A stretch of 64,000 nt of DNA from Patescibacteria group bacterium (lineage in GTDB: Bacteria; Patescibacteriota; Patescibacteriia; UBA1558; GWA2-36-10), in assembly GCA_041665545.1 (NCBI GenBank), contig JBAYIQ010000001.1:67495-131494 (forward strand). The letters run 5' to 3'. The notes under the pieces were generated by a model. The model saw only the letters and a program-made list of their open reading frames with translations. It made no database searches and was not told the origin of the DNA. Of the stretch, positions 1 through 63,503 are shown piece by piece. Numbering within the stretch: position 1 is the first letter of the stretch; each line of letters begins with the position of its first letter. The position numbers and the translations under genes are program-made.

Positions 1-1188
1 AAGTTGCTCCTAAATTTATAGGCCTTAATCAGTCTTTCTCGTCTTTTGGCCAATCTATATTTGACAAAAAACCATTCTACTTTAGTTTTGGTCTTGGAAT
101 CTGGCTTGAAGGCGTTCAAATTCATAGTGCTGAATTGTTTCAAAGAGCCAAAAACTGGGGAAATAACACGGCCGGGATTATATTGATCGTGTGGTGAAAG
201 ATAAATTAATCTGATCTTACATTCAAAGCCAATTTTTGCGGCCTTCTTCTGTATCGCTTCCAAGGCGTCTTTTTCTCCGGGTGTCAAATGCAACATGATG
301 CTAGGCAAGTCGTCTTTTTTAACATCTTTTCTTGACTTATCACCTGGTACATCATTCCACCAAAACATTGACTGGCCATTCTCCAAGGTGAAAAGGCCAA
401 ATATTGACGGTAAAATATTTGCGTACCATGATTTTTTTGATTCTGGCGCTTTTTTACCCGCCAATTTCATGGCTGCTTCTTTAGCTTTTTTTTGCCATTT
501 TTCACCATAGCAAGGACGAATCAACAACTGCAACCAAACACGCTCACCATTTCTTATTTTACTCATGGTTTCTATTACCGAAGCCATGGGATCTTTGAAT
601 TCACCACTGACTGAATCCTCAAATTCGGTGTAAGTGCGTATGGGGTAAATTTCCGAAGCTACTGGCACCACTTCTGTGCCCCACATATTATAATCATCAT
701 TGGGAAACTTGGATGAAACATCGGTGGTATAGTCGTTGACTTCGGTTATTTCCGCGTCCGGATACTGTGAATAAATTGAGCTTTCCACTAGGTCTCGCCA
801 ATAGTCGGGTGTTCTAATGAGAAACTGCACATAACCATCAATACTAATGATTTCAAAAGAAAAAGCTAATTGAAAAACTCCTTCCATTTTTTCTTTAAAA
901 CTAATGGGTGTATGAGCACCAGAAAGTGTGGCAAATAATTGCTCGACAGCTTTGGGAGTTTGTTCGGAATCGCGCGGTATGTCAATAGCCAAAAAAATCC
1001 ATTTTATTTTATTGAACCATTTTACTTGCTTATAATTGTGCCAGACATCATAAGCCATCAAGACAACAACAAAAGCATAAATCAAACCCACACCATGAGT
1101 AAAGGCATAGATCATTAGCTCGTCGGCTGGCAGTGAGCCAACCTCAGCCACAGCATTCCAGTCTATTAAAAAAGAAGTCAGATCCATA
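1..1188 (-). CDS. Partial CDS (C-terminus lies beyond the window start). N-terminal TM helix plus domain, paralogous to the N-terminal region of the VirB4/TraC-like ATPase at 17242-19698.
   Basis: Own translation of the minus strand from the ATG at 1186-1188 is open to the window edge (MDLTSFLIDWNAVAE...). It shares the N-terminal TM segment and a domain pattern with the 818-aa VirB4-like protein, the 5' portion of a large gene. Confidence 0.4.
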
Positions 1189-1297
1189 TAGCTCTATTTG
1201 TCTATATTATACAATTTATTAACATTTTTTGCTAGTCAACGGTCAAATAAAATAAAAAAACAACCCACTAGCTTAGTAGAGTTGTTTTCTTATAAAA

Positions 1298-2401
1298 TTA
1301 GGCATTTTTCAAAGAGTATTTTCCGTTTTCGTTTTTAATAAATCTATCTTTGTTCATTAAAGCTAAGGCGACAGTTGTTTCTTTGATCATGCGATGCTTC
1401 AAGACCTCTTCCACAATTTCTTTTTTATTCAATGGTCTATCGCTCTGGCGTAATATTTCTTCGATTACATCAGAAACCACGCCTGGTTTGTAGCCCCATT
1501 CTTTTAGGGCATAAATACCGCGACCAACCAAAACATATTTGTCATCCAAAATCAATTCATTGTGAATAGTGGCTGGATAAGCTTGGCGATGATCAAAATT
1601 CATCTTGTTGATAGTCTCGGCAATTTCGTTGAAATGCATTGGCCTGTTTTCTTTCTTCAAAATCAAATAGATTTTATCATTCATTCTCTTGGGAGAAATA
1701 TCTGGCCAATGAGTCAAACCCCATTCTTCGTAAGGATTTGATTTTAACTTTTTGGTAATATAAATAAAATTCAACACAACTTTATCAGTCAAATTTTCAT
1801 TTTGCTTGTAGTAGTCAGTATCTTGCACTCGGCTCAATAGAGTGTCTAATGGCAAAGGCGCACTGTGTTTCTCCACAATCTCTAACACTTTATCAATGGC
1901 TTGGTCATAAAAATCCACAGAAGACTCGGGAGATTTCCAGTAATCAAAATTTTCTTTTGTTTCTCTGATAAATTGAAAACGGTGTTTTAGTAATTGACCT
2001 AAGATAAAAACCACAGCTGAATGATTGTCGTTGTTATAGCCAGAAGAAGTCAATAATTCTTTAATCAAATTAGCTTCGGCCATTAAGCCGCCATGTTCTG
2101 ACAAAATGCCATTAGTAACATCTTCAATCTCCTGTAAATAAGTTTCATCAAAATTCTTGATGATTTTCTTCAGTGAACTGTTTTCAATCTGCCTGACACG
2201 TTCACGGGTAATAGCATATTCTTTGCCGATGTCTTCTAAAGTTTTTTTGTCATAGCCAGACAAGCCGTGGCGGAGCTTGATAATCTCGCGTTCACGATCA
2301 GTCAGAGCAGTCAAAATGCCGTCTAGCGTTTCATGAGGATTGAAACTAGCTAAATTTGATAAATGTTTGGCTGTAATTACTTGGTCTAAAATTGATTCCA
2401 T
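1298..2401 (-). CDS. Sigma-70 region-4-like HTH protein with a C-terminal winged-helix (HARE-HTH-like) domain
   Basis: N-terminal motif ITRERVRQIENSSLKKI is typical of sigma-70 region 4. The C-terminal part is a wHTH-like segment. 367 aa. Confidence 0.5.
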   Translation of the reverse strand: MESILDQVITAKHLSNLASFNPHETLDGILTALTDREREIIKLRHGLSGYDKKTLEDIGKEYAITRERVRQIENSSLKKIIKNFDETYLQEIEDVTNGILSEHGGLMAEANLIKELLTSSGYNNDNHSAVVFILGQLLKHRFQFIRETKENFDYWKSPESSVDFYDQAIDKVLEIVEKHSAPLPLDTLLSRVQDTDYYKQNENLTDKVVLNFIYITKKLKSNPYEEWGLTHWPDISPKRMNDKIYLILKKENRPMHFNEIAETINKMNFDHRQAYPATIHNELILDDKYVLVGRGIYALKEWGYKPGVVSDVIEEILRQSDRPLNKKEIVEEVLKHRMIKETTVALALMNKDRFIKNENGKYSLKNA

Positions 2402-2475
2402 ATTATTTATTTAAATCAATAAATATTCGATGTTTTTTAATATCCCCCATAGCATAACACATTTATTAAAATAAG

Positions 2476-2509
2476 TCAACCCCAATTTAGTAAAAAACAG
2501 GGGTTGACA
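2476..2509 (-). terminator. Perfect 9-bp inverted repeat (GTCAACCCC...GGGGTTGAC) downstream of secF
   Basis: Hairpin seen directly in the sequence. It is followed by T-rich sequence on the minus strand. Confidence 0.4.
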
Positions 2510-2517
2510 AAAAAGAT

Positions 2518-2629
2518 AATATTTTGGCTACCCGCCTTGACTCGCCTACTTTTATAGTAAACTATTTTTTTAGCTAATATTAGCTAAAAATAAGACAAAA
2601 TATCACCTAAGGCGAGGCAGGATTTTAGC
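2518..2629. repeat. Copy 1 of a ~115-nt intergenic repeat (AATATTTTGGCTACCCGCCTTGACTCGCC ... AAGGCGAGGCAGGATTTTAGC)
   Basis: The 29-nt left arm and 21-nt right arm are identical to the copy at 17111-17226. The arms are partly complementary. The centre contains a CTAATATTAGC palindrome. The right arm overlaps the secF stop codon. Confidence 0.7.
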
Positions 2630-3530
2630 GCTTTTTATTAAACAATAATAATAGCGGTGAGGCAATAAATATTGATGAGTAAGTTCCCACTACCACACCA
2701 ATCAACAAAGCTAGGGCCAGATATCTGGTGCTTTCTCCGCCAAAAAGTAGTATGGCTAGCAGGGCCAAAAAGGTCGTCAAGGAGGTATTTAAAGAGCGGA
2801 CTATAGTTTGGTTGATGCTGATGTTAATAATTTCTTCAAAGTTGTCATAACTGCGACTTTTGAAAAGATTTTCTCGAATACGATCAAAAGTAACGATGGT
2901 ATCATGGACTGAGAAGCCCAACAAGGTTAATAAAGCGGTCACAAACAAACTATCTACTTCTACTCCAGCAAATCTACCTAAGAAAACAAAGACGCCAGTC
3001 ACCACCAAGACATCATGAATCAAAGCAATGATAGCTGAAACTCCATACTTCCATGATTCTACTGGTTTGGATACTTTTCTAAAAGCGTAAGCAATATATA
3101 AAACTATAAAAACCAAAACAATAACAATCGCCTGAATGGCTTTGGTTTTTAATTCTTTGCCTAAAGATGGTCCAATAGACTCAAACTTATTTTCTGAAAA
3201 AGTATTATTGTCAGTATTGGCTACTTTTATTCCAGACAAAGCTTTGACAATTTCCTGATGACGAGTTTCGTCAATATTTTGGAAACGGAAAATATAATCT
3301 TTTTCTCCAGATGGCTGAACTATAACATCAGCTATATTTACCTGACTGAAAACTGTCTTAACCTCATCTGCGCTAGGTCGCTGTTGTGAGTAAGTGACGT
3401 CCATCAAGCTTCCACCAGTAAAATCCAAACCGTATTTTAGTCCCCAAAGAAACCAACCAAGTATTGAAATAGAAACAAGCACTATTGAAACGGTGTACCA
3501 AATTTTTCTTGTTTGAATGATTTTGAACAT
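2625..3530 (-). CDS. secF: Protein translocase subunit SecF
   Basis: 301 aa, 6 TM, SecF architecture, immediately downstream of secD. Confidence 0.85.
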   Translation of the reverse strand: MFKIIQTRKIWYTVSIVLVSISILGWFLWGLKYGLDFTGGSLMDVTYSQQRPSADEVKTVFSQVNIADVIVQPSGEKDYIFRFQNIDETRHQEIVKALSGIKVANTDNNTFSENKFESIGPSLGKELKTKAIQAIVIVLVFIVLYIAYAFRKVSKPVESWKYGVSAIIALIHDVLVVTGVFVFLGRFAGVEVDSLFVTALLTLLGFSVHDTIVTFDRIRENLFKSRSYDNFEEIINISINQTIVRSLNTSLTTFLALLAILLFGGESTRYLALALLIGVVVGTYSSIFIASPLLLLFNKKR

Positions 3531-3535
3531 ATTTT

Positions 3536-5215
3536 TTATTCCTCAGTTTTTTCTAATTTTACACCAAACCAGCCGAGTTTATTTTCTAGTTTTTTATTAA
3601 CCACCAAACGCATAATGGTGTGAGTCACAGTAAGAGCGGAAAACATGGATACCAAAATACCAATACCCAAAGTTATAGCAAAACCTTTGATAATCGAAGT
3701 GCCAAACCAAGCCAGAATCACACAAGTGATAATTGACGAAAAGTTTGAATCTCTAATTGATGGCCAAGCTCTCTCAAATCCATCTTCAATGGCTGTAACT
3801 AAATTTTTGCCATTGTAAAGCTCTTCTTTGGTGCGCTCAAATATCAAAACATTGGCATCAACGGCCATACCAATAGATAGAATAAAACCAGCAATACCGG
3901 CCATAGTCATAGTCACTGGTATTAATTCAAATATTGATAAACTGACTACGGTATAGATACCCAAAGCAATGACAGCCAAGAAACCCGGCAAGCGATAAAA
4001 CAGCAACATAAACAAAGCGGCGGCCAAGAAACCAATAATGCCAGCCAACAAACTCTGGGTCAAAGAAATCTTACCTAAAGTCGGTCCAATAGTCTGTTGG
4101 GTGAGCAAGCTAATCGGCACTGGTAAAGCACCCAAGTTCAAATCTTTGACTAATTGCTTGGCTTCGGCAATAGTAAACTTGCCAGAGATCTGAGCTGAAC
4201 CATCTTTGATGGCTTCTTGAACTACTGGACTGGAGCGCAATGATCCATCCAAAAATATACCAATTGGTTTTCCAACATTAGCTTCAGTCAAAGAGGCAAA
4301 AACAGTTGTGCCTTCTTCATCAAAATCAAGTAAAACCATTGGATCTTGGGTATTGGGGTCAAATTGTAGTTGCGCTTTTTTTATATTTTTACCACCCAAG
4401 GTAGTATCCAGCCAATTATTATTCAAATCAGCGTTTGCTTTGGCAAATAAAATATGCGCGGCATGCACTTCTAGTACACCATCAACTGTAGTGCGCTCCT
4501 CTATTTTTTTTATAATATGATAGCCAAACTGAGATTCCACTAATTGCTTACTGATTTGTCCGGATTTTAAATCTTCAAAAATAGCTTTGTCAAACTCGGG
4601 TACAAAAGTATCTTTTTTGGCCCAGCCCAAATCACCGCCAGCGTCTTTTGAGCCCGGATCTTCGCTGAATTCTTTGGCTAGCTTGGCAAAATCCTCATTT
4701 TTTAGGGCGCGCTTCAAGACTTCTTCGGCTTTCAAACGAGTAGCGTCATTATCAGTTGAACTTGTATCTGCTCCTTGAGTTTTGAATTCTAATAGCGGTG
4801 TCTTATCAATGATTTTTATAGCTTCATTGACATCAGTAACGCCGGCTAATTCTACAATAATACGATAATTTTCTCCACTGTAGTTGGTCTGGACCAGTGG
4901 CTCAGAAACACCGTAGGCATTGACCCGTCTTTCAATGACGTCCCGTAGGGCTTCCACACGGTCACGACGCTCGCTATTAGGCACGTTGGTAACATCGGCC
5001 TGATAAACAAGATGGGTGCCACCCTGTAAATCAAGACCCAGATGCATTTTGACCTTATTTACCCAATGATCTTTGGGTAAAAAAGACACATTTGGCAGAA
5101 CAAAAAGTATAGCCATTATTGTCAAAATAGCTATAAATATCCCTGTCCATCTGAGCCGATTTTTGCTAATAAGCTTGTGTTGCTGTGGATAACTATATTT
5201 ATTCATAATTTCCAA
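3536..5215 (-). CDS. secD: Protein translocase subunit SecD
   Basis: 559 aa, N-terminal TM, large periplasmic domain, C-terminal 5 TM. Precedes secF. Confidence 0.85.
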   Translation of the reverse strand: MEIMNKYSYPQQHKLISKNRLRWTGIFIAILTIMAILFVLPNVSFLPKDHWVNKVKMHLGLDLQGGTHLVYQADVTNVPNSERRDRVEALRDVIERRVNAYGVSEPLVQTNYSGENYRIIVELAGVTDVNEAIKIIDKTPLLEFKTQGADTSSTDNDATRLKAEEVLKRALKNEDFAKLAKEFSEDPGSKDAGGDLGWAKKDTFVPEFDKAIFEDLKSGQISKQLVESQFGYHIIKKIEERTTVDGVLEVHAAHILFAKANADLNNNWLDTTLGGKNIKKAQLQFDPNTQDPMVLLDFDEEGTTVFASLTEANVGKPIGIFLDGSLRSSPVVQEAIKDGSAQISGKFTIAEAKQLVKDLNLGALPVPISLLTQQTIGPTLGKISLTQSLLAGIIGFLAAALFMLLFYRLPGFLAVIALGIYTVVSLSIFELIPVTMTMAGIAGFILSIGMAVDANVLIFERTKEELYNGKNLVTAIEDGFERAWPSIRDSNFSSIITCVILAWFGTSIIKGFAITLGIGILVSMFSALTVTHTIMRLVVNKKLENKLGWFGVKLEKTEE

Positions 5216-14257: not shown

Positions 14258-14300
14258 TATAATTATAGATAATTTTTGTATATTAAATCTAAAAATGTTT

Positions 14301-14599: not shown

Positions 14600-14673
14600 T
14601 GGCTGCCGGACAGGGAGTCGAACCCCGATTACTAGGGCCAGAACCTAGCGTCCTACCATTAGACGATCCGGCA
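14600..14673 (-). tRNA. tRNA-Gln (anticodon CTG)
   Basis: Reverse complement folds as a canonical cloverleaf: acceptor TGCCGGA/TCCGGCA, D-loop AATGGTA, anticodon loop TTCTGGC, T-loop TTCGACT, encoded CCA. Confidence 0.8.
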
Positions 14674-17110: not shown

Positions 17111-17226
17111 AAATATTTTGGCTACCCGCCTTGACTCGCCAAGCTATCAAATTATTAGATATTTTACCTAATATTAGCCAAAAAATAAGAATTAACCCTT
17201 AATAATAAGGCGAGGCAGGATTTTAG
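17111..17226. repeat. Copy 2 of the ~115-nt intergenic repeat (see 2518-2629)
   Basis: Arms identical to copy 1. It lies immediately downstream of the stop of the VirB4-like gene. Confidence 0.7.
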
Positions 17227-17241
17227 CCAAAATACTGACAA

Positions 17242-19698
17242 CTAAACAATAATTCTTTGCATGACCTCGTCATCCACAATTTTTCTATCACGGCCATACT
17301 TGAGCCTTGATAATTGTTTAATAGCTTCAGCCAGCTCCAAGTTGCCTTTTTCCGGCATAATGGGCGTAAAATTAAAAGCCGGCGGATTAGCGTTATCAAT
17401 CAACAGTTTGGCATAACAAGTATATTTGGGCATGTTCACCAAATCATAGACAGAAACTACTGGCGCCATTTGCTTAGCAATCACCTCAGCATCCTCCACT
17501 CCAATGCGATATGAAATCAAAGTCCCGACATTACCAAAAATTGCATCTTTGATTCTGGTGTCGTTGTTTTTTACTAATTGCGCAATATATTGGTGCGCTA
17601 AAATCAAATCCAATCTATATTTTCTAGCTTCCGATAAAATAATACCAATAGTCTCGGTCATAAAATTCTGGAACTCATCAATGTACAAATAAAAATCACT
17701 GCGCTGTTCTTCGGCTATATCCACTCTACTCATGGAAGCAAATAATAATTTACCAATTACTATCATACCCAAAAGATTACTATTCATTTCCCCTATTTTA
17801 CCTTTGGATAAATTAATAATAATAATTTTTTTACTATCCATGGCTTCGCGAAAATTGAAAGCACTTTTTTGCTGAGCAATTATTGGTCTGATAGTGTCGT
17901 TGGAAATAAATGGCGTCAGCTTGCTGGTGATATAGGGCACCATGTTAGCCAGTGATGCTTCACCGCCAGCTTTTTGCGCTTCTTTTTCCCAAAAATCTTT
18001 GACTAGCCGATTTTTTACTTTTGATAATTTAAATTTGCGATAGGCCTCATCGGACAGCACCCGGGGCACTTCTACTAAAGTAGCCCCCGAATCCTTGTCG
18101 TCCATAATCAAAAGCATGGCGTTGCGCATGTATTGCTCAAACATTGGTCCGCCAGTGGCTTTCAAGTCATACAACTTGTCAAAAATAGCAATCATTTCAT
18201 TGATCACGAAACCTTTTTGTTCTTCGGTGTCGTATTCCAACATATTCATGGCCAAGGGCCGTTCAATATCTGAGGGGTTGAAATATATAACATCTTCGGC
18301 TCGTGATTTTGGCACATGACTCAAGGCCTTGTCGGCTAGCTCACCATGCGGATCTATGACACACAAACCATGACCAGCCTCAATATCTTGCTTGATCAAA
18401 CTTTCCATAAACACTGATTTACCAGTACCGGTCATTCCAATCTCATACATATGGCGACGACGATCTGCTTCTTTGATACGCACTAGTGTTTCTTTGCCAC
18501 GATAAATATTTTTCCCCAAAATTACACCTTCAGTCGGCATATTTACTGGCGGTGCCGCTTTGGTAGCTTCCAGCCAATCAATGTTTGGTGTCTCGGTAGT
18601 CGGTAGTGGCAAATGAATGACACTAACCATCTCCTCGGAGTTTAATAACAAACGATAGTCCGGAGCAAAATGATGATAAATCAAATGCTCAGCAATTCGA
18701 TCTGAATGTCTAGGTACCACGGCCTGAAAACGATTACCAAATTCATAGATATTGTACTGATTATAACTATTCAAAATATCAGCTAAAATTGCTTTGGAGC
18801 GCTCATGGCTAGTGCTTGATACTACCATGCGAATATTGACTTCCAGGCCAGCTTTGGAAGTTTTCTCTTCCAAGCCCTTGGCTCGCTCCTGCTCCATGGC
18901 TGATAAGGGCTGTTTGTGATCCTCTATTTCTTTGGCTACTTCTTCTGGCTTTTTAGTTGTCTTAAAGAAACTAGCCAAAAAACCGGAGGTTTTTTCTAAG
19001 CCAGCCACAAAACCAGTGCCACCAGTTTCTTTCATGGCTTGGGAATAAGTAAAACCCTTGTGCATTTTTTGGGCTATGGTACGGCCTCTTTTGTGCCATT
19101 TTTTGGGTGCGGAGCGAAAAACATATTGAATAGCCGCTCCTTCACCGGGCACTAATTTACTCAAAGCATTAGTAATCCCTTCTTGGGGATCATTTTCAAA
19201 ACTACGGTAGGTTTTTATGGGCAAAGTATAGTCATTGGTAAATTTCAAATAGCCGGCCATTATAAATGAATTGGTCTGAAAAATATTGTAATCCGTCACC
19301 TCTTCAGCGTAGATCTTGGGGTAGACTGCCTGTAATTGACCAATAAAAAACTCCGCAAATTTTTGCGGTACTGTAGCGTAAAAATTAATCAAACCATTTT
19401 CAGAAACAATATCAAGTGAAAAAATTTCTTTCGGTTGTCCAAAAAATAATTTTTCTGCCTTTAATCCAGCCAGAGCCGAAAAAAAGTTCTCAATTTTGCC
19501 CAAGGTCTGCTCAATATATTGCTTGGATAATTCTTCTTTTTCTTCTTTAGTATATTTGGGAACTTTTATCAAAAAAACTGACAAACGCAAACTCTTGTTG
19601 GTTTTTGTCTTGTTTTTATGAATAAGGACGCTCAAAATAATAAAAGTAAATAAGGCCAACAGTCCTATTGAAATTAAACTTTCTTGGTTAAGCTCCAT
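17242..19698 (-). CDS. VirB4/TraC-like (DUF87-type) P-loop ATPase with N-terminal TM
   Basis: Walker A GMTGTGKS, HerA/VirB4-like ATPase core, 818 aa, N-terminal membrane anchor. Confidence 0.7.
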   Translation of the reverse strand: MELNQESLISIGLLALFTFIILSVLIHKNKTKTNKSLRLSVFLIKVPKYTKEEKEELSKQYIEQTLGKIENFFSALAGLKAEKLFFGQPKEIFSLDIVSENGLINFYATVPQKFAEFFIGQLQAVYPKIYAEEVTDYNIFQTNSFIMAGYLKFTNDYTLPIKTYRSFENDPQEGITNALSKLVPGEGAAIQYVFRSAPKKWHKRGRTIAQKMHKGFTYSQAMKETGGTGFVAGLEKTSGFLASFFKTTKKPEEVAKEIEDHKQPLSAMEQERAKGLEEKTSKAGLEVNIRMVVSSTSHERSKAILADILNSYNQYNIYEFGNRFQAVVPRHSDRIAEHLIYHHFAPDYRLLLNSEEMVSVIHLPLPTTETPNIDWLEATKAAPPVNMPTEGVILGKNIYRGKETLVRIKEADRRRHMYEIGMTGTGKSVFMESLIKQDIEAGHGLCVIDPHGELADKALSHVPKSRAEDVIYFNPSDIERPLAMNMLEYDTEEQKGFVINEMIAIFDKLYDLKATGGPMFEQYMRNAMLLIMDDKDSGATLVEVPRVLSDEAYRKFKLSKVKNRLVKDFWEKEAQKAGGEASLANMVPYITSKLTPFISNDTIRPIIAQQKSAFNFREAMDSKKIIIINLSKGKIGEMNSNLLGMIVIGKLLFASMSRVDIAEEQRSDFYLYIDEFQNFMTETIGIILSEARKYRLDLILAHQYIAQLVKNNDTRIKDAIFGNVGTLISYRIGVEDAEVIAKQMAPVVSVYDLVNMPKYTCYAKLLIDNANPPAFNFTPIMPEKGNLELAEAIKQLSRLKYGRDRKIVDDEVMQRIIV

Positions 19699-34563: not shown

Positions 34564-35029
34564 TGTCTAAATAACCCTGTAAGCCGAATTCTGTCGAGGA
34601 TGATCATCTATCTAGGCCCATGATTGCTCATGGGCTCAAGCGGTTTACCCGCCCCTTGATTTCTCTCAGGGCCTATTTAACCTTTCACCGAGTAGAGTTT
34701 ACCTCTTTTGCTTTGTCACCAAAGTAACGTGTCAGCTCATTATCTGACAATTTCACCCTTACCCATTTGACTCAGCCTTGCGGCTTCGCTCAGGGAGGAA
34801 TATTTTCTGTTGTACTTGTCTTGACTCTTGAGTCACCTCTCAAGCCAGTTGACGTTATCAACTACCCGCCCCGCAAGCGGAGCCATTGGTGTTCGGACTT
34901 TCCTCCCTGAACCACTCACTCCGTTCGGGTATCAGGGCCGAAGCCCTTTTACATTATTACGGCGTGAGCCGTGTACCCGAGCAAAGCGAGTGGTTCACGG
35001 CGATCATCTGGGTTATTTAGACGATTATT
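34564..35029 (-). ncRNA. rnpB: RNase P RNA, bacterial type A
   Basis: On the minus strand: GGGAGGAAAGTCCGAACAC (P4 5' strand), ACAGAAAATA, GGGTAAGGGTGAAA, ACAGAATTCGGCTTACAGGG (P4 3' strand), and a P1 helix CGTCTAAATAACCC/GGGTTATTTAGACA. Confidence 0.85.
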
Positions 35030-50346: not shown

Positions 50347-50456
50347 TGTCATTCTATCGTTTCGTCCGAAGGACAAAACGATAGAATCTACAAGTATAAA
50401 TTAAGGATATGGATTCTATCGGCCATTCGCCCGTGCTCATGGCCTCCAGAATGACA
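50347..50456. repeat. Palindromic MITE-like element, copy A (TIR TGTCATTCT/AGAATGACA; internal GATTCTATCG/CGATAGAATC hairpins)
   Basis: Perfect 12-bp hairpin ATTCTATCGTTT/AAACGATAGAAT. The termini are inverted repeats. It shares its core with the elements at 52179 and 55338. Confidence 0.55.
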
Positions 50457-50464
50457 AGTCTATT

Positions 50465-52162
50465 TTACTTAACGTGAATATCTTTAATTTTTAATTGTAT
50501 TTCACGATTACCATTCCATTCGTTGATATTTATATTATAAACGATGTCGACATTGTGGCCAACTGCCAAATCAATATTTCCGAGACCAAAACCAATGCCA
50601 CCAATTTTTTTGTTGTTTTGCGCTAATTCTAATTTCAAATGTTTGCCATCAGAACCAACTTTACGCGCTTGGCTGATCATAACATTTTCACTGACAAAAT
50701 ATGGCTCGGGATTGCCTTGGCCGTGTGGCTCAAATTTCTGCAACCAATCAACCAACTCCCAGTTTATTTGCTCCAAATCAATTTTTTTCTCAATTTCCAA
50801 TTTACTTTGAAAAAGCGAATCTTTTAACTGATCTTCAGCTAATGCTTTAAGATTTTTTATTAAAGTTTCATAATTTGCTTGAGTTGTGGTAAAACCAGCG
50901 GCCTGCGGATGTCCACCAAATCTAAGCAACAAATCTTTGTTCTTGGTCAGTGCTTCAGTAATATTGAATCCCTCCAAACTACGGGCTGAACCCACAATCT
51001 TGTCGCCTTGACCGCAAATCACTAGGCAAGGACGATTATACTCCCTGAGCAGTTTGTTGGCAGCCAAACTTACTAGACCAGCTGGCCAGTCCGCTTTATA
51101 GAAAACCAACAATTTGTCAGTAGCGCTTATATCTAAAGTCTTGGCCTCACGAAAAATATTTTCAGTGATTTTTTGCCTTTCACTATTATTTTGATTCAAA
51201 GCTGCAGCCATTTCAGCGGCTTTGGCTTCGTCTGTTTCAATCAATAAAAAATAAGCTTGGTTGGCATGGTCCATGCGTCCGGCTGTGTTAATTCGCGGCG
51301 CTATGGCAAAAGCAATATTCGTAGCATCAATTTCTTTGGGTTCCAAACCCGCCACTTTGAACATCATCTGCAAGCCGACGCGCCGCGTCTTCCGCAAGAC
51401 AATGAGTCCGTGCTTAAGTAGGGTTCTATTTTCTCCAATAATAGGCACCATGTCAGCCACAGTAGAAATAGCCACCATGTCCAAAAGCCATTTTTCTTTG
51501 GATTCTCTGTCTTTGAGCTCAAATTTATTACTAGCATGCTTAAGTAGCGCTTGTGCTAATTTGAAAGACACTCCGCCACCACACAAAAATTTGAAAGGAT
51601 AAGTTTCCCCGGGTGCTTGCGGATGAATAATGGCGTAGGCCTCTGGCAATTTTTCCGGCATGGCATGATGGTCAGTGATGATCACATCAACATTTTTGCT
51701 GTTGGCTAAGGCCACTTCTTCATTGTTACTGACTCCACAGTCGCAAGTAATTATTAATTTTGTACCGTTGCTGGCAATCTCTTCCACTGAAATCAAATTC
51801 AAACCATAGCCCTCTTTTTCGCGGTGTGGTAAATAGACCGCAACCTTGGCTCCCAAATCAGTGAGCACACTATTCAAGATCACTGCCGAACTCACGCCAT
51901 CAGCATCATAGTCAGCATAGACAGTGATTAATTCTTTTTGCTCAATAGCTTGGTAGATGCGTTGACAAGCTTTTTCCATGTCTTTGAACAAAAAAGGATC
52001 ATGAATGTCTTGACTATAATCAGGTAATAAAAATTCATCTACTACCTCTTGATTTTGCAAATTACGAGAAAACAAAAGCTGAGTCACTATTGGTGGCAAT
52101 TCTGGAAACTTTTCCGTAAGTTCTTGGGGAGCTTTTTCTTTTATCTGCCAAATATAGGGCAT
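50465..52162 (-). CDS. recJ: Single-stranded-DNA-specific exonuclease RecJ
   Basis: DHH (DCDGVSS..., DHH) and DHHA1 (GGGH) motifs. 565 aa. Confidence 0.85.
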   Translation of the reverse strand: MPYIWQIKEKAPQELTEKFPELPPIVTQLLFSRNLQNQEVVDEFLLPDYSQDIHDPFLFKDMEKACQRIYQAIEQKELITVYADYDADGVSSAVILNSVLTDLGAKVAVYLPHREKEGYGLNLISVEEIASNGTKLIITCDCGVSNNEEVALANSKNVDVIITDHHAMPEKLPEAYAIIHPQAPGETYPFKFLCGGGVSFKLAQALLKHASNKFELKDRESKEKWLLDMVAISTVADMVPIIGENRTLLKHGLIVLRKTRRVGLQMMFKVAGLEPKEIDATNIAFAIAPRINTAGRMDHANQAYFLLIETDEAKAAEMAAALNQNNSERQKITENIFREAKTLDISATDKLLVFYKADWPAGLVSLAANKLLREYNRPCLVICGQGDKIVGSARSLEGFNITEALTKNKDLLLRFGGHPQAAGFTTTQANYETLIKNLKALAEDQLKDSLFQSKLEIEKKIDLEQINWELVDWLQKFEPHGQGNPEPYFVSENVMISQARKVGSDGKHLKLELAQNNKKIGGIGFGLGNIDLAVGHNVDIVYNININEWNGNREIQLKIKDIHVK

Positions 52163-52178
52163 TTTAATAAAAATAAAT

Positions 52179-52280
52179 AATCACACTATCGTTACTGTCA
52201 TTCCGGATTTATTCCGGAATCTAGTTAAAAAATGGCTAGATTCCTGCCTGCGCAGGAATGACGGTAGTAATTGTGTGATT
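52179..52280. repeat. Palindromic element, copy B (26-nt imperfect terminal inverted repeats around nested palindromes)
   Basis: AATCACACTATCGTTACTGTCATTCC ... GGAATGACGGTAGTAATTGTGTGATT. Internal CCGGATTTATTCCGG and CCTGCGCAGG palindromes. Confidence 0.55.
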
Positions 52281-52315
52281 ATTGTAGCAATAATTAATAA
52301 TTTTGGGAAATATTT

Positions 52316-52993
52316 CTAGTCTGCGAGGCCCCCTCTATCCATACAAAGTATATAAATCCCCTGATATTTAAAATAATCTGGCCGAGTAATATTTTCTGGC
52401 AAGGTAAGGTTATTCTTTTTATAATATAAAGTAGTTTTATCAAGATACTCGCTATAACACTTGTGAGACCAATAATAAAACCAAAAATAAAAACTAAAAA
52501 ATAATATTAAACCAAACAGTAGATATTTATAATTACCATATTTTATTACTCTAATAATAATAAAAATAATTAGCACCAAATATAAAAATAACCCACCAAT
52601 CATCATGGTTAAAATTAAAGAACCATTCCAGGTAATCATAAATTTCGGCGGAAATAAATCATAGGATTCAATAGTAAATACAAAATAAGCCAAGTAAACT
52701 GTGACTGTAATAATATTAAAAAAAATTCTAAAAATTTTATTTTTTACAGAAAACGAGATTTTTTTAGGTTGGCTTTTTAAAATTGCCTTGGGACCTAAAA
52801 TTTTCCTCAAGAAACCTATTAAAATTAATGCCAAGTAAACTAATAAAATTAAAAATAATGTACTCCAAAAAAATGAACCATCTTTTAGTCTAACAATAGT
52901 CGGCCACCAATAAAATATAATAAAAAATAAAAATAACGGCACGGTCAATATTATTGACAACCTCAAATCTTTAAAAAAATTATTTAATTTCAT
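52316..52993 (-). CDS. Hypothetical polytopic membrane protein
   Basis: 225 aa, very AT-rich, at least 5 TM. Confidence 0.45.
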   Translation of the reverse strand: MKLNNFFKDLRLSIILTVPLFLFFIIFYWWPTIVRLKDGSFFWSTLFLILLVYLALILIGFLRKILGPKAILKSQPKKISFSVKNKIFRIFFNIITVTVYLAYFVFTIESYDLFPPKFMITWNGSLILTMMIGGLFLYLVLIIFIIIRVIKYGNYKYLLFGLILFFSFYFWFYYWSHKCYSEYLDKTTLYYKKNNLTLPENITRPDYFKYQGIYILCMDRGGLAD

Positions 52994-52997
52994 GTAA

Positions 52998-53525
52998 TTA
53001 CTTTATCTTCTCCACTTTTATTTTAATGGGTTTATCCATTTTCTTTGCGGACTTTTTATCTTCCTCGTCCTCATCGTCACCTTCCTCTTCAAGCAACTCT
53101 TCCTCCACTTTCTCTACTTCTGATTCTTTGGCTAATTCCGGCTCCTCTTCCTCAATGCCCTCCTTTTCATCAACCGATTCCTCTATTTCTTCATCCTTCT
53201 TTATACTTTCAACTTTCCCACCCACGGGGTGGTCGCCCTGTGGGCGAGACTTTTTACTGCGGTCTTTATTCTGCAATTCGGCCAATAAAAAAAGTAAACC
53301 AAAAGCCAAAAGCAACAAACCAACCAACACAAACCAAAAATACATATTGCTAAAATTAAAAAATGATGTTTCTGGACTGGTGGTCAGCATGGTGTTGTAT
53401 TGCTCCTTCAACAAGTCCAACTCTTGATTGGCATTTTGCAATTGACCTTCTGTCACCTGCAAATTTTCGTTGACCGTGCTACTAGCGTTTTGCGCCAGCA
53501 AAATTACTGATGTAAATATTGCCAT
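52998..53525 (-). CDS. Hypothetical protein: signal peptide, coiled coil, TM, highly acidic C-terminal tail
   Basis: ORF. EEE/DED-rich tail. Confidence 0.45.
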   Translation of the reverse strand: MAIFTSVILLAQNASSTVNENLQVTEGQLQNANQELDLLKEQYNTMLTTSPETSFFNFSNMYFWFVLVGLLLLAFGLLFLLAELQNKDRSKKSRPQGDHPVGGKVESIKKDEEIEESVDEKEGIEEEEPELAKESEVEKVEEELLEEEGDDEDEEDKKSAKKMDKPIKIKVEKIK

Positions 53526-54667
53526 GTTTTTGTTGCTATATTTTTCATCTCACCTTCTGGGGCAATCAAAACGCGACAGCCCTTTGGTAAATTTAAATTT
53601 TTTAAAACTAAACTGCGAATTACCGCCGAGTTGGTACCTACCACGCCAGTAAACACAATGGCTTGCGGTTTCTTACTCATACCCAAATACGAAGCTAAAT
53701 AGCGCTTGATATCATAAACATAAACAGCCAAAGCTTGCTTGGCTAATTTTTTCTGAATACTTGAATATTTGAAACTTGACTTGTAGCCACTGACTTTGTA
53801 GCCCGAAGCCAGCAATACTTCTCGTAAATCAGCGCTACCACTCAAGCCCAAGAGCCCTGACTCTTGATTGATTAACTGGTCAATTTGCTCTAAAGGCATT
53901 TTTTGTTCTTTGGCTAGATACAAGGCCACGGCCGCTGGCAAATCACCGCTACGAGTCGCCATAGTCAAACCCTCATTGGGTGAAAAACCCATGGTAGTGT
54001 CTTTGACCTTGCCCGCTTCCAGCCAAGCAATGCTTGATCCCGATCCCAGATGAATAGTAATGGCTGATAATTTATTCCAAGCTATATTCAATTTTTTGGC
54101 AGCCCAAGAACAAGCCATCTCATGACTAAGCCCGTGAAAACCATATTTTCTAATGCCAAACTTTTCGTAATATTTTATGGGCAAAGAATATAAATAAGCT
54201 TCTGGCTCAAGCCCTGAAAACCAAGCTGTGTCAAAACTGGCAATTATTTTGACTTTGGGCCAAGTAGCTTGCACTATTTTTACCAACTCCAAACTTTGTT
54301 CGTTGTGTAATGGCGCCAAGTGATTGTACTGGCTTATTTTTTGTAAAATATTTTTATCCAGCTTACAGCTTTTCTTAAACTCCGCGCCACCGTGAACCAC
54401 TCGCAAGCCAACAGCTTGAATGTCCAATTTGGCCAGCATTTCATGAATAGCTTGCCAAGCGTTTTTCAAACTGTATTTTTCCGAATAATTAACTTGATTT
54501 TTTTTATTATTTTTATAATAAAGCAAAATTGACTTGGCATTGTAAGCAGAATATGAGCCCTCCAAAATTATTCGGCCTAAAACTTTTTTGTCATACTCAA
54601 AAACAGCAAATTTCAAACTACTGGAGCCGTTGTTCAAAATGAGTAAATTTTTTTTCTCATTTTTCAT
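53504..54667 (-). CDS. ackA: Acetate kinase
   Basis: N-terminal LILNNGSSSLKF (acetate kinase signature 1), VVHGG and HLGSGSSIA motifs. Confidence 0.75.
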   Translation of the reverse strand: MKNEKKNLLILNNGSSSLKFAVFEYDKKVLGRIILEGSYSAYNAKSILLYYKNNKKNQVNYSEKYSLKNAWQAIHEMLAKLDIQAVGLRVVHGGAEFKKSCKLDKNILQKISQYNHLAPLHNEQSLELVKIVQATWPKVKIIASFDTAWFSGLEPEAYLYSLPIKYYEKFGIRKYGFHGLSHEMACSWAAKKLNIAWNKLSAITIHLGSGSSIAWLEAGKVKDTTMGFSPNEGLTMATRSGDLPAAVALYLAKEQKMPLEQIDQLINQESGLLGLSGSADLREVLLASGYKVSGYKSSFKYSSIQKKLAKQALAVYVYDIKRYLASYLGMSKKPQAIVFTGVVGTNSAVIRSLVLKNLNLPKGCRVLIAPEGEMKNIATKTWQYLHQ

Positions 54668-55256
54668 AAATATATACTTTTTGCTTATTAACTAAACCCA
54701 CGGCATTAGCTTCATCAGTATCAAGATGAACATGGGTTTTGAAGTCTCCGACTCTAACCACTACATTCTCCAAAATAGCTGATCGCTCTCCCTTGACCAT
54801 GATGGCTATTTTTTTACCACTTTTGTATTTCCATTCTTTGGCCTGTTTTTTGGAAATATGCAAATGACGCTGAGCCACAATGGCCGCTGCTACGACATGA
54901 CCATGTGGCCCCTGCAAAGTGACTTGGCTAGATTTGCGTACTTGTCCAGAAAGCTGAACGACTGGCTTGATGCCCAAAAAATAGCAATCAGTCATTGACA
55001 GTTCCACTTGGGTTTTGCGTCGCACCGGACCCACAATCCTCACTTTGGGAAAATAATCACGCCCACCCTTAACCACCAGTGTTTCTTTGGCCGCAAATTC
55101 TTCGGGCTGTGACAAATCTTTAAATTTTGATAATTTAAAATTTTTACCAAATAATTTTTCCAAATCTTTTTGGTTCAAGTGGATATGTCGCGCTGATACT
55201 TCGGCTATGATTGTTTTCACCCCGTTAGAAATTTTCTTTTCTTTTTTGCTGTGCAT
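54657..55256 (-). CDS. pduL: PduL-type phosphate acyltransferase (phosphotransacetylase)
   Basis: About 200 aa with two PduL repeats (VSARHIHL ... AQRHLHI). Confidence 0.7.
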   Translation of the reverse strand: MHSKKEKKISNGVKTIIAEVSARHIHLNQKDLEKLFGKNFKLSKFKDLSQPEEFAAKETLVVKGGRDYFPKVRIVGPVRRKTQVELSMTDCYFLGIKPVVQLSGQVRKSSQVTLQGPHGHVVAAAIVAQRHLHISKKQAKEWKYKSGKKIAIMVKGERSAILENVVVRVGDFKTHVHLDTDEANAVGLVNKQKVYIYEK

Positions 55257-55337
55257 AAAATAAAAATAATAATACCAATTGTTATAATTTTACTAACTAC
55301 AAATTTTCGTGAATTTCTAAACGGGGTTTCATAAATG

Positions 55338-55440
55338 CTTTTGCTCGTCATTCTGGAGCGAACGCAGTGAGCGATAGAATCCACAAAATGTAGACTCTAT
55401 CGCTTCGTCCCGCCACACGGGACTACGCTCCAGAGTGACA
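55338..55440. repeat. Palindromic element, copy C (TIR GTCATTCTGGAGCG/CGCTCCAGAGTGAC; internal GCGATAGAATC/GACTCTATCGC)
   Basis: Seen in the sequence. Shares the GTCATTC terminus and GATAGAATC core with copies A and B. Confidence 0.5.
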
Positions 55441-56422: not shown

Positions 56423-56469
56423 ATTTATTTTTATTTACTTATACTTATATTATAACACAAAAATTAATT

Positions 56470-59733: not shown

Positions 59734-59761
59734 CTTTTCATTGACAATTTAACAAACCTTT

Positions 59762-59866
59762 GAAGCAAGGAAGCATTATCTTTATTTGGACGCTTGGATA
59801 ATGTGGAGCTAGTAGCGTAACCGGCAACAATTTTTGGTTACGCTTCCTAATGGGAAGTGTTTTTTG
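59762..59866 (+). promoter_or_regulatory. Structured RNA leader A (riboswitch-like) ending in an intrinsic terminator
   Basis: Conserved blocks GAAGCAAGGA / TTTGGACGCTTGG / GGAGCTAGTAGCGTAACCGGCA. Alternative 8-bp hairpin GCGTAACC/GGTTACGC. Terminator CTTCC..GGAAG plus TTTTTT. Confidence 0.45.
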
Positions 59867-59900: not shown

Positions 59901-60051
59901 GATGAGGCAAGGAATGATCGTCTGTATTTGGACGCTTGGTCCTCCCACTCCGCCATCTGGCGGATATGGACGGACGAGGACGATCAGGAGCTAGTAGCGT
60001 AACCGGCAATTTTTTTGGTTATTAGCTAAACACCTCATTCAGGTGTTTTTT
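59901..60051 (+). promoter_or_regulatory. Structured RNA leader B (paralog of A with an extended internal stem) ending in an intrinsic terminator
   Basis: Same three conserved blocks. 62-nt insertion forming CCGCCAUCUGGCGG and GGUCCUC/GAGGACG stems. Terminator CACCTcattcAGGTG plus TTTTTT, directly before the receiver gene RBS. Confidence 0.45.
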
Positions 60052-60700: not shown

Positions 60701-60824
60701 AGTGAGGCAATGACTGATTACTATCCATTTTGGACGCCAAATTGGTAATCAAGAGCTAGTGGCGTAACCGGCACTTTTATCAACTAAGCCACCCACCTCA
60801 CCAAACATTAATTGAGGTTTTTTT
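60701..60824 (+). promoter_or_regulatory. Structured RNA element C (third paralog of A and B) with an intrinsic terminator
   Basis: GAGGCAATGA / TTTGGACGCC / AGAGCTAGTGGCGTAACCGGCA blocks. Terminator CCTCA..TGAGG plus TTTTTTT. Confidence 0.45.
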
Positions 60825-62410: not shown

Positions 62411-62484
62411 TCGGGGATCGTCTAATGGTAGGACAGCGGCCTTTGAAGCCGTGAATTGGGGTTCGAATCCCTGTCCCCGAGCCA
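62411..62484 (+). tRNA. tRNA-Gln (anticodon TTG)
   Basis: Cloverleaf: acceptor TCGGGGA/TCCCCGA, D-loop AATGGTA, anticodon loop CTTTGAA, T-loop TTCGAAT, CCA encoded. Confidence 0.8.
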
Positions 62485-62741
62485 CTCGACTCGTCGTCGT
62501 TTCACTCCGCCTCGCTCGTGATTTCAGCTCCTCACTTCGTTCGTTGTTTCAACCCTTCATATAAAAAAGACGAGGTGAGTGTCCCGAGCGTAGTCGAGGG
62601 ACAAAACAATTTTTTATGAAGTATACCTAAGATGCTGCGCAATAGCGCAGCGCCCCGAGCCAGCCTTCGCCAAGGCTACGGCTGGCTTACAGCCATAAAA
62701 TATACCACAAAATTTAAAAATTAATTAAAAAATAAAATTAT

Positions 62742-63436: not shown

Positions 63437-63490
63437 CACCCACCCATTCGACTACGCTCACCACAAGTCGCTCAGGGTGATTTTTTGTTA
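63437..63490 (+). terminator. Terminator hairpin (CACCC...GGGTG) plus ATTTTTTGTT
   Basis: Seen directly. Confidence 0.45.
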
Positions 63491-63503
63491 AATTTACTTC
63501 TTA

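Follow-up and report, generated by a model that had tools for sequence, protein, structure and literature searches.

Paired hairpin repeats around recJ in a Patescibacteria genome: probable CGTC/TGTC-tagged REP dimers, in part of an undescribed sequence subtype

Analysis of a 64-kb stretch of contig JBAYIQ010000001.1 from a Patescibacteria group bacterium (hereafter the window) revealed three intergenic palindromic elements, designated E1, E2 and E3, two of which flank the recJ gene (Table 1). All three share one layout: a unit of the form YGTC-ATTCY[hairpin]RGAAT-C-tail, a spacer, and an inverted copy of the unit. We consider it probable that they are head-to-head pairs of CGTC/TGTC-tagged repetitive extragenic palindromic sequences (REPs), i.e. 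relatives of dRS3/NTS of Neisseria and RPE-6 of Rickettsia, which are also described as Ssn-related motifs (SRMs). What is new is the host lineage (Patescibacteria) and, for part of the units, the sequence subtype, and not the kind of element. An earlier note on this DNA had placed one family of repeated nested palindromes at these three sites, and this was confirmed in the sequence.

The earlier note also ascribed to the elements common terminal inverted repeats, GTCATTC(T/C), which are exact in E1 and E2, but contain one mismatch in E3. In E1, GTCATTCT (50348-50355) recurs as its exact reverse complement at 50448-50455; in E2, an exact GTCATTCY/RGAATGAC repeat is formed by GTCATTCC at 52197-52204 and 52255-52262; and in E3, GTCATTCT (55347-55354) is faced by AGAGTGAC (55432-55439), the right end with the mismatch. 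A GATTCTATCG/CGATAGAATC core, said to occur in all the elements, is present in E1 and E3 but absent from E2. The terminal 8-mer alone is a weak signal (8 matches in the window versus 3.1 expected, not significant), and its extra matches at 18431, 24573 and 57392 lie inside coding sequences and were rejected as chance occurrences. A generic detector (GTCA, 5-bp stem, C) proved too noisy as well, with 11 matches versus 7.3 in shuffled sequences, of which only the six known units are real. The complete four-signpost layout (GTCAYTCY..RGARTC..GAYTCY..RGARTGAC) was found at three loci of the real sequence, whereas none of 300 first-order Markov resamples of the window contained it. Structure prediction, which the earlier note had suggested as a check, revealed that each element folds considerably better than its shuffled versions on both strands (z = -5.2 to -9.2), with the outer stem closing a three-way junction. 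E1-E3 fill three consecutive spacers among the 25 that are at least 50 nt long, for which the post hoc combinatorial chance is approximately 0.01.

In each case (3/3) the element is a head-to-head dimer with the tags outside, and the paired units are separated by 5-17 nt. The units are built according to a single plan: an unpaired 5' tag YGTC (TGTC in four and CGTC in two units), a hairpin base ATTCY/RGAAT, a C immediately following the hairpin, and the 3-nt tail CYA (CTA, CCA, CTA, CTA, CCA and CTA in the six units). Tag, C and tail are preserved in 6/6 units, and the stem base opens with A-T/T-A pairs, apart from the right unit of E3, which has C at position 2 and starts with AC, not AT. Three of the four E1/E3 units share the sequence ATTCT-GGA-G[variable hairpin]C-GAT-AGAAT. 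The right unit of E1 and both units of E3 combine five canonical pairs with GGA/GAT mismatches and long inner segments, the exception being the left unit of E1, a perfect 12-bp palindrome made from the CGATAGAAT arm; this is the stem ATTCTATCGTTT/AAACGATAGAAT that had been pointed out before, and it is real (50351-50362/50376-50387). The two halves of E3 also pair with each other, through 14-bp outer and 11-bp inner stems. The extent proposed earlier for E2 (52179-52280) had to be narrowed: its core stands, but the outer ATCACAC/GTGTGAT repeat is a host hairpin, and the CCTGCGCAGG hairpin reported there turned out to be a palindromic 10-mer, which is no separate hairpin but overlaps the real one, ATTCCTGC-CTGC-GCAGGAAT, in its loop and 3' arm.

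Table 1. Positions of the three elements, their units and adjoining features in the window
Feature	Position	Strand	Remarks
E1, TGTC-tagged dimer, recJ/RNase H spacer	50347-50456		ends 39 nt before RNase H start
E1 left unit, TGTC-ATTCTATCGTTT-c-GTCC-GAA-GGAC-a-AAACGATAGAAT-C-TA	50347-50391	+	perfect 12-bp stem, nested mini-hairpin
E1 right unit, TGTC-ATTCT-GGA-GGCCAT..ATGGCC-GAT-AGAAT-C-CA	50409-50456	-	sequence
recJ (DHH, DHHA1, RecJ_OB), bracketed by E1 and E2	50465-52162	-	domain annotation
Host hairpin, left arm ATCACAC, 5' end of recJ leader; E2 in loop	52178-52184		inverted repeat, relatives
E2, dimer of two CGTC-1-like units, 11-nt spacer, recJ 5' leader	52196-52263		sequence, folding
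E2 left unit, TGTC-ATTCCGGA-TTTAT-TCCGGAAT-C-TAG	52196-52224	+	8-bp stem, 5-nt loop
E2 right unit, CGTC-ATTCCTGC-GCAG-GCAGGAAT-C-TAG	52236-52263	-	8-bp stem, 4-nt loop
Host hairpin, right arm GTGTGAT	52273-52279		inverted repeat, relatives
Putative recJ promoter (TTCCCA, 17 nt, TACAAT with TG)	52281-52309	-	promoter scan
E3, dimer in pfkB/pduL spacer	55346-55440		sequence, folding
E3 left unit, CGTC-ATTCT-GGA-GC-GA-AC-GCA-GT-GA-GC-GAT-AGAAT-C-CA	55346-55384	+	stem needs G.A/G.T mismatches
E3 right unit, TGTC-ACTCT-GGA-GCG-ta-GTCCCG-TGTGG-CGGGAC-gaa-GC-GAT-AGAGT-C-TA	55390-55440	-	sequence

CGTC REPs have been defined by the tag CGTC (TGTC in many, CCTC allowed), a stem of 8-9 bp with A-T pairs at positions 1-2, a loop of 4-5 nt and an unpaired 3-nt tail, mostly CCA (Di Nocera 2013, PMC3733652). 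They mostly form head-to-head dimers with the tags outside and spacers of usually 20-100 nt, are repeated from tens to thousands of times per genome, and have no associated transposase; one of their families, CGTC-1, corresponds to dRS3 of Neisseria and RPE-6 of Rickettsia conorii (PMC3733652). Judged by its sequence, E2 is a textbook CGTC-1 dimer: both of its units satisfy the stem (8 bp) and loop (5 and 4 nt) criteria. On the same grounds, E1 and E3 are assigned to a separate subfamily, characterized by the ATTCT-GGA-G...C-GAT-AGAAT frame given above. The translation VIPAKAGI of intragenic CGTC-1 copies corresponds to GTCATTCCCGCGAAAGCGGGAATC. A word search of the literature with sequence strings of the E1/E3 subtype found no paper describing it, the matches being unrelated primers.

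The Neisseria repeat was redefined in 2025 as the oriented NTS CGTCATTCCCGCGMAVGCGGGAATCYRG (Chenal 2025, PMC11893778). It is bound by SsnA, a 94-aa single-domain GIY-YIG protein, which cuts a few nucleotides upstream and acts on single-stranded DNA only, on the tag strand only, and not on RNA (PMC11893778). Binding depends critically on the C that follows the palindrome, and cleavage on the three nucleotides in front of the palindrome, while the loop is dispensable and extendable; binding and cutting are known for the Neisseria and Wolbachia enzymes, and ssn genes are typically flanked by SRMs in many phyla (PMC11893778). A search of the PDB for a solved SsnA structure returned UPF0213 relatives only.

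The E1/E3 subfamily is linked to genes of the same kind. Among the metagenome matches listed (to which all the counts of neighbouring genes, inner segments and orientations below refer), a GIY-YIG gene (approximately 95 aa, PF01541) abuts units of this subfamily in 11 of 120 loci. The median distance between this family and the units is at most 11 nt, and units are often present on both sides of the gene. Unbiased clustering of the open reading frames (ORFs) located within 1.5 kb of the units identified GIY-YIG as the only tightly linked family, and the Tyr/Tyr/Glu spacing of these proteins (Y7, Y18, E65) parallels that of SsnA (Y6, Y17, E64; 94 aa).

These observations bear directly on another possible identity of the elements, namely REPINs, i.e. 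REP doublets moved by a REP-associated tyrosine transposase (RAYT), an IS200/IS605-like Y1 HUH enzyme, as in Pseudomonas and Escherichia coli. In both cases hairpin units bearing a short unpaired tag form inverted doublets, and single-strand hairpin recognition is the likely logic here too; the comparison with IS200/IS605 hairpin ends advised in the earlier note was apt, since what would be recognized is a single-strand hairpin plus a short tag. However, the tag is YGTC instead of GTAG, no RAYT flanked by CGTC units is reported in the literature (PMC3733652), and no Y1 transposase-like family appeared in the neighbour clustering or in the annotation of the window and its extension, which makes a RAYT-dependent origin very improbable.

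The earlier note had made its proposal dependent on the existence of further copies with conserved ends, and such copies are widespread. The complete four-signpost architecture occurs at no fewer than about 30 loci in viral contigs of 34-68% GC (the scan asked for three of the four signposts), and the E1/E3 subtype is present at at least 120 metagenome loci of 30-58% GC, as well as, in the form GTCAYTCTGGAG..CGATAGARTC, in three viral contigs. One of these three, the phage-like contig IMGVR_UViG_3300029305_010155, encodes a terminase large subunit and a barstar-like ORF and carries nine E1/E3-subtype units within 5.3 kb (900-4930), mostly as head-to-head pairs inside larger repeated segments, which resembles a Neisseria-style mosaic.

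The inner segments of the E1/E3-subtype units are highly diverse. Of 106 distinct segments, 43 form simple hairpins, and read on the tag strand their loops are predominantly GNA or AAA (27 GNA/AAA versus approximately 5 of pyrimidine type). The stem is 2 bp long in 45 of the 106, and the majority of the listed examples carry tandem GA..GA around a mini-hairpin. This strand asymmetry is not a search artefact, because the pattern used fixes the outer parts only. Single units located between co-directional ORFs are oriented with the tag strand in one direction or the other in 13 and 16 cases, unrelated to the direction of transcription. The asymmetry and the lack of orientation bias give indirect support, drawn from sequence comparison, to a role at the DNA rather than the RNA level.

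The RecJ protein of the window shares 60-62% identity with those of Candidatus Komeilibacteria and other Patescibacteria metagenome-assembled genomes (MAGs) and 86-94% with those of three MAGs, which places the host in the Parcubacteria group, as a Patescibacteria genome near Komeilibacteria. Comparison of the corresponding loci is informative as to the origin of the elements. In the Komeilibacteria-level relatives (L128, L133 and L134; RecJ 60-62%) the recJ/RNase H spacers range from a few to approximately 35 nt and are element-free, as is the pfkB/pduL junction in L128 (where the genes overlap) and in L134 (approximately 240 nt, with a small ORF). The recJ leader of all three contains a bare hairpin, ATCACGT-loop-ACGTGAT, and it is the loop of this hairpin that E2 occupies in the window. 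The elements are thus insertions that postdate the divergence from the Komeilibacteria relatives, in which they are absent from all three spacers.

In the close relatives (RecJ 86-94%), elements are found at the sites occupied in the window, with different units, inverted order, chimeric arms or swapped apical hairpins. The E1 site is occupied in L127 and L180, contains a single unit and a mosaic in L125, and has no family unit in L126, L128, L133 and L134. The right unit of E1 recurs unchanged at this site in L127 and nearly unchanged in L180. Its partner is of the GGAG type in L180, combines two subtypes as a chimera in L127, and is a perfected palindrome only in the window. Since its L180 equivalent has a GGAG-type 5' arm that is non-complementary, the sequences suggest that the perfect palindrome of the left E1 unit arose by correction of a quasi-palindrome. 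At the E2 site L126, L127 and L180 each carry a dimer of their own, and L125 carries no dimer. The ATTCCTGC unit of L126 lies on the opposite side compared with E2, an arrangement consistent with inversion of the dimer, and L180 (78% nucleotide identity over recJ) has a canonical GTCATTCCCGCGAAAGCGGGAATC unit. At the E3 site the window and L127 share the ATTCTGGAG subtype, L125 and L126 have an ATTGCGAG subtype instead, and the apical hairpins are unrelated; even where the same right unit is present, in L127, its apical hairpin is another one (GTCGAGC-TTA-GCTCGAC). Tag, stem base and 3' C persist while the rest changes, as would be predicted for an Ssn-like enzyme with a loop-tolerant site. 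One further locus, L002, matches the window without a difference along 13.4 kb and so provides no information on polymorphism.

Other differences between these loci were also noted. The spoU/pfkB spacer is 47 nt long in the window (56423-56469) and approximately 620-640 nt long in L125 (5152-5774) and L126 (3731-4370), where it contains an extra AT-rich ORF resembling membrane proteins; in L127 (3925-4054) no match to spoU was found. Between RNase H and holB the window has a gene of 209 aa; L125 and L126 have unrelated small ORFs in its place, and L127 lacks it.

With a size of 66-108 bp, terminal inverted repeats GTCATTCY/RGAATGAC, an intergenic location and a presence that differs between relatives, the elements resemble miniature inverted-repeat transposable elements (MITEs), i.e. 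deletion derivatives of insertion sequences with a DDE transposase, which move by means of their terminal inverted repeats. Nevertheless, they can hardly be classical MITEs. A check for target-site duplications, recommended in the earlier note, revealed no direct repeats beside E1, E2 or E3. The inverted termini, made up of the tag and stem base of two inverted units, extend over no more than 7-8 nt and belong to hairpins that elsewhere are also found alone (105 of 131), no transposase gene is present in the window or its extension, and the sole gene family linked to the units elsewhere encodes the GIY-YIG nuclease. The earlier description of MITE-like, non-autonomous remnants is thus upheld with respect to insertion, although no transposase sharing their ends was found: as CGTC/TGTC-tagged REP pairs, the elements are probably non-autonomous passengers of a nuclease-encoding element.

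All the genes of the region lie on the minus strand, in the order pfkB, [E3], pduL, ackA, two genes of no assigned function, [E2], recJ, [E1] and RNase H; the GC content of the window is approximately 38%. The observation that two of the elements bracket recJ proved to be accurate: E1 starts 8 nt beyond the recJ stop codon and E2 is situated 33 nt upstream of the start codon. E3 lies between pfkB and pduL, starting 4 nt beyond the stop codon of the former and 89 nt upstream of the latter. The TGNTACAAT motif of the promoter-like site upstream of recJ is kept in the relatives, and this site, if it functions as a promoter, would put E2 within the transcribed recJ leader. Given that all the flanking genes are on the minus strand, the elements are probably transcribed, E1 and E3 as 3' structures behind recJ and pfkB, and E2 in the recJ leader; they may incidentally stabilize the mRNA.

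This location raises the question of whether E1-E3 are primarily RNA elements, with E1 and E3 acting as exonuclease blocks in 3' untranslated regions or as terminators/attenuators, E2 as a leader regulator or stabilizer, and the family resemblance being secondary. Apart from the co-directional genes and the placement of E2 between the promoter-like site and the recJ ATG, this would be in line with the very stable three-way-junction RNA folds (-44 to -58 kcal/mol, z down to -8), with the occupation of the pfkB/pduL site in all four close relatives, L125, L126 and L127 among them, and with related hairpins within the annotated small RNAs (sRNAs) FtrB (31.9 bits) and WsnRNA46 (17.1 bits, E = 0.82, i.e. 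at chance level); the closeness of E1 and E3 to stop codons is typical of REPs. However, the more distant relatives lack elements at all three sites, and in the close ones the inner parts vary freely, with only the tag, the stem base and the 3' C being fixed. These fixed features are precisely those needed by a nuclease specific for single-stranded DNA and inactive on RNA (PMC11893778). Furthermore, each dimer has one unit per strand, and single units elsewhere are unbiased with respect to genes, as described above. The suggestion that the elements may act as terminators is weakened by the lack of a T/U run adjoining the outer stems of E1 and E3, and the terminator scan made no call at E1, E2 or E3; intrinsic terminators were accordingly rejected at E1 and E3. 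The host hairpin around E2 is followed by a U-rich leader, yet it lies downstream of the promoter-like site. Searched at gathering thresholds, Rfam yielded no match at the elements. A primary RNA function appears unlikely, while an RNA role as a side effect is plausible, given the position and stability of the elements.

Several points weigh against the assignment of E1-E3 to tagged REPs of the Ssn-related type. The units of E1 and E3 do not fit the published CGTC ranges of stem (8-9 bp) and loop (4-5 nt). In the nearest-neighbour DNA model, which gives no credit to G.A pairs or GNA loops, the left unit of E3 alone is not a significant hairpin (z = -0.35), and folding gives no consistent advantage of the tag strand. 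The case for a family of repeats in the host genome is based on a small number of copies, i.e. three dimers in approximately 74 kb (the 64-kb window and a 9.4-kb extension) of a 295.6-kb contig. The published SRM string, HGTCWYN(0-2)YYVSBRHN(0-5)WNVSBRGN(0-2)RNCYNB, has no match on either strand of the window, the six units included, although it matches the Neisseria NTS used as a control; the units are missed because the string demands G/C-rich stems, whereas those found here are AT-richer or mismatched. The annotation of the window and of the adjoining 9.4 kb contains neither a transposase nor a GIY-YIG gene, and a hidden Markov model built from seven metagenomic GIY-YIG proteins, run against all the ORFs, detected no Ssn-like GIY-YIG ORF in the window, in approximately 10 kb more of the contig or in approximately 190 kb of the relatives' loci. 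The enzyme may be absent from the host and the elements may be relics. Mobilization of SRMs by Ssn is only a hypothesis in the literature (PMC11893778), and the cutting by Ssn proposed for this organism is carried over from the Neisseria and Wolbachia enzymes. The sole GIY-YIG match was a UPF0213/YhbQ-like protein at 18313-18636 of locus L129 (RecJ 45% identity), which is not of the Ssn type and has no REP units nearby.

If the elements are indeed REPs of this type, the following scheme may be proposed. When the DNA becomes single-stranded during replication, repair or transformation, the tag strand would fold into a hairpin. Together with the 3' C and the 5' GTC, this hairpin would be recognized by Ssn, a small single-domain GIY-YIG nuclease, which would nick a few nucleotides upstream. 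The apical part of the hairpin would be free to vary, which would explain the nested, fast-changing inner hairpins. The units would spread as passengers of SRM-ssn-SRM cassettes and settle preferentially in intergenic spacers and hairpin loops; this route of mobilization we infer. It seems rather doubtful that the repeats are actively turning over at fixed spacers in this small candidate-phyla-radiation lineage. Were this true, and driven by an Ssn-type nuclease encoded elsewhere in the genome through the cutting of single-stranded DNA hairpins and subsequent templated repair, the compact genome would offer a tractable natural system, which could answer how CGTC-type REPs multiply (a question standing since 2013) and could show whether the bracketing of recJ shields this gene from replacement by transformation.

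Under the assignment favoured here, the nested palindromes are filed under a family with a defined biochemical partner, which keeps terminators, sRNAs and MITEs from being annotated in their place. The range of CGTC/SRM repeats is extended to include a Patescibacteria genome, and a widespread subtype is defined, YGTC-ATTCT-GGA-G[hairpin]C-GAT-AGAAT-C, which is outside the published REP families and linked to Ssn-like genes. Since the published SRM string misses this subtype, surveys based on it undercount the system. Strain-to-strain remodelling at fixed sites also offers a handle on the evolution of the repeats.

Some other repeats of the window are worth mentioning. Hairpin modules of the GA-NN-GNA-NN-GA type, like the inner ones of E3, are present in a GC-rich insert of approximately 170 nt that follows a tRNA gene (62411-62481, plus strand) and precedes a second tRNA 3' end (CCCCGAGCCA, near 62654); this duplication (62411-62665) looks like an att-type one. 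A module of the same type, GAACGGAGTGAG, lies in the interior (34916-34926) of the RNase P RNA gene (34564-34951, minus strand), whose 5' end is spanned by an inverted repeat (34905-35000). A terminator-like hairpin CACCC...GGGTG with TTTTTTGTT behind it is located at 63440-63500, and its loop carries the module TTCGACTACGCTCA, which is also the apical hairpin of the REP unit at the pfkB/pduL site of L125. A common pool seems to supply the apical modules.

Within the segment 14258-14917, three copies of a tRNA 3' half (TTGGCTGCCGGATAGGGACT, plus strand) are located near 14293, 14508 and 14601 (the tRNA gene itself is on the minus strand, 14603-14673), and the first of them is split by a GC-rich insert of approximately 130 nt; they may be remnants of integrations at the tRNA gene or interrupted tRNA genes. 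Two copies, each of approximately 100 nt, of TTTTGGCTACCCGCCTTGACTCGCC...AAGGCGAGGCAGGATT (2520-2624 and 17118-17222) precede minus-strand genes encoding a sigma-70-like protein and a 192-aa protein of no assigned function, and may be a shared leader or promoter element. A c-di-GMP-II riboswitch (Rfam) was identified at 59752-59835, with look-alike copies TTTGGACGC...GGAGCTAGTAGCGTAACCGGCA, below the gathering threshold, in the next spacers (approximately 59925-60010 and 60735-60775). The segment at 60-62 kb has a GC content of 50.6%, compared with approximately 38% elsewhere.

E1-E3 share several features with known systems. Like the REP/BIME (bacterial interspersed mosaic element) and REPIN-RAYT systems of Proteobacteria, they are short tagged hairpins, often in inverted doublets, placed behind genes and probably recognized as single strands by a small enzyme of their own (a nuclease or a transposase); unlike them, they have neither a GTAG tag nor a Y1 HUH enzyme, the proposed counterpart here being a GIY-YIG protein. 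The consensus of the Rfam family FtrB (RF02748, Francisella sRNA B) holds a GUCAUUCCCGCGUAGGCGGGAAUC hairpin that aligns to the CGTC unit of E2 (52236-52263), and this shared CGTC-1 hairpin indicates that repeats of this kind can be present in transcripts and receive an sRNA annotation. As candidate identities, FtrB (31.9 bits versus a threshold of 66) and WsnRNA46 (RF02625, Wolbachia; 17.1 versus 65.3) were rejected as sub-threshold, only the repeat hairpin being common.

With CGTC-1 REPs, the elements have in common the CGTC/TGTC tag, the AT-starting stem, the 3-nt tail, the head-to-head dimers, the intergenic position close behind stop codons, the lack of a nearby transposase and, in the case of E2, insertion of a dimer within a host palindrome, as in Halothiobacillus neapolitanus (PMC3733652). 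They differ in their host, which lies outside the five phyla listed for CGTC REPs, in their number (three dimers) and in their spacers, which are below the usual length, while E1 and E3 differ from the four described CGTC families in the 5-bp canonical base, the GGA/GAT mismatches and the nested apical hairpins of 13-22 nt. Compared with NTS/SRM, whose enzymology concerns only the Neisseria and Wolbachia enzymes, the E1/E3 subfamily is known from sequence alone. The likeness to NTS/SRM comprises the GTC before the palindrome and the C directly after it in all six units, the oriented hairpin with a tolerant loop, and, at metagenome loci, the SRM-ssn-SRM layout, in which E1/E3-type units adjoin GIY-YIG genes of approximately 95 aa on one or both sides; the right unit of E2 (52236-52263) differs from the NTS CGTCATTCCCGCGCAGGCGGGAATCTAG at one complementary stem pair only.

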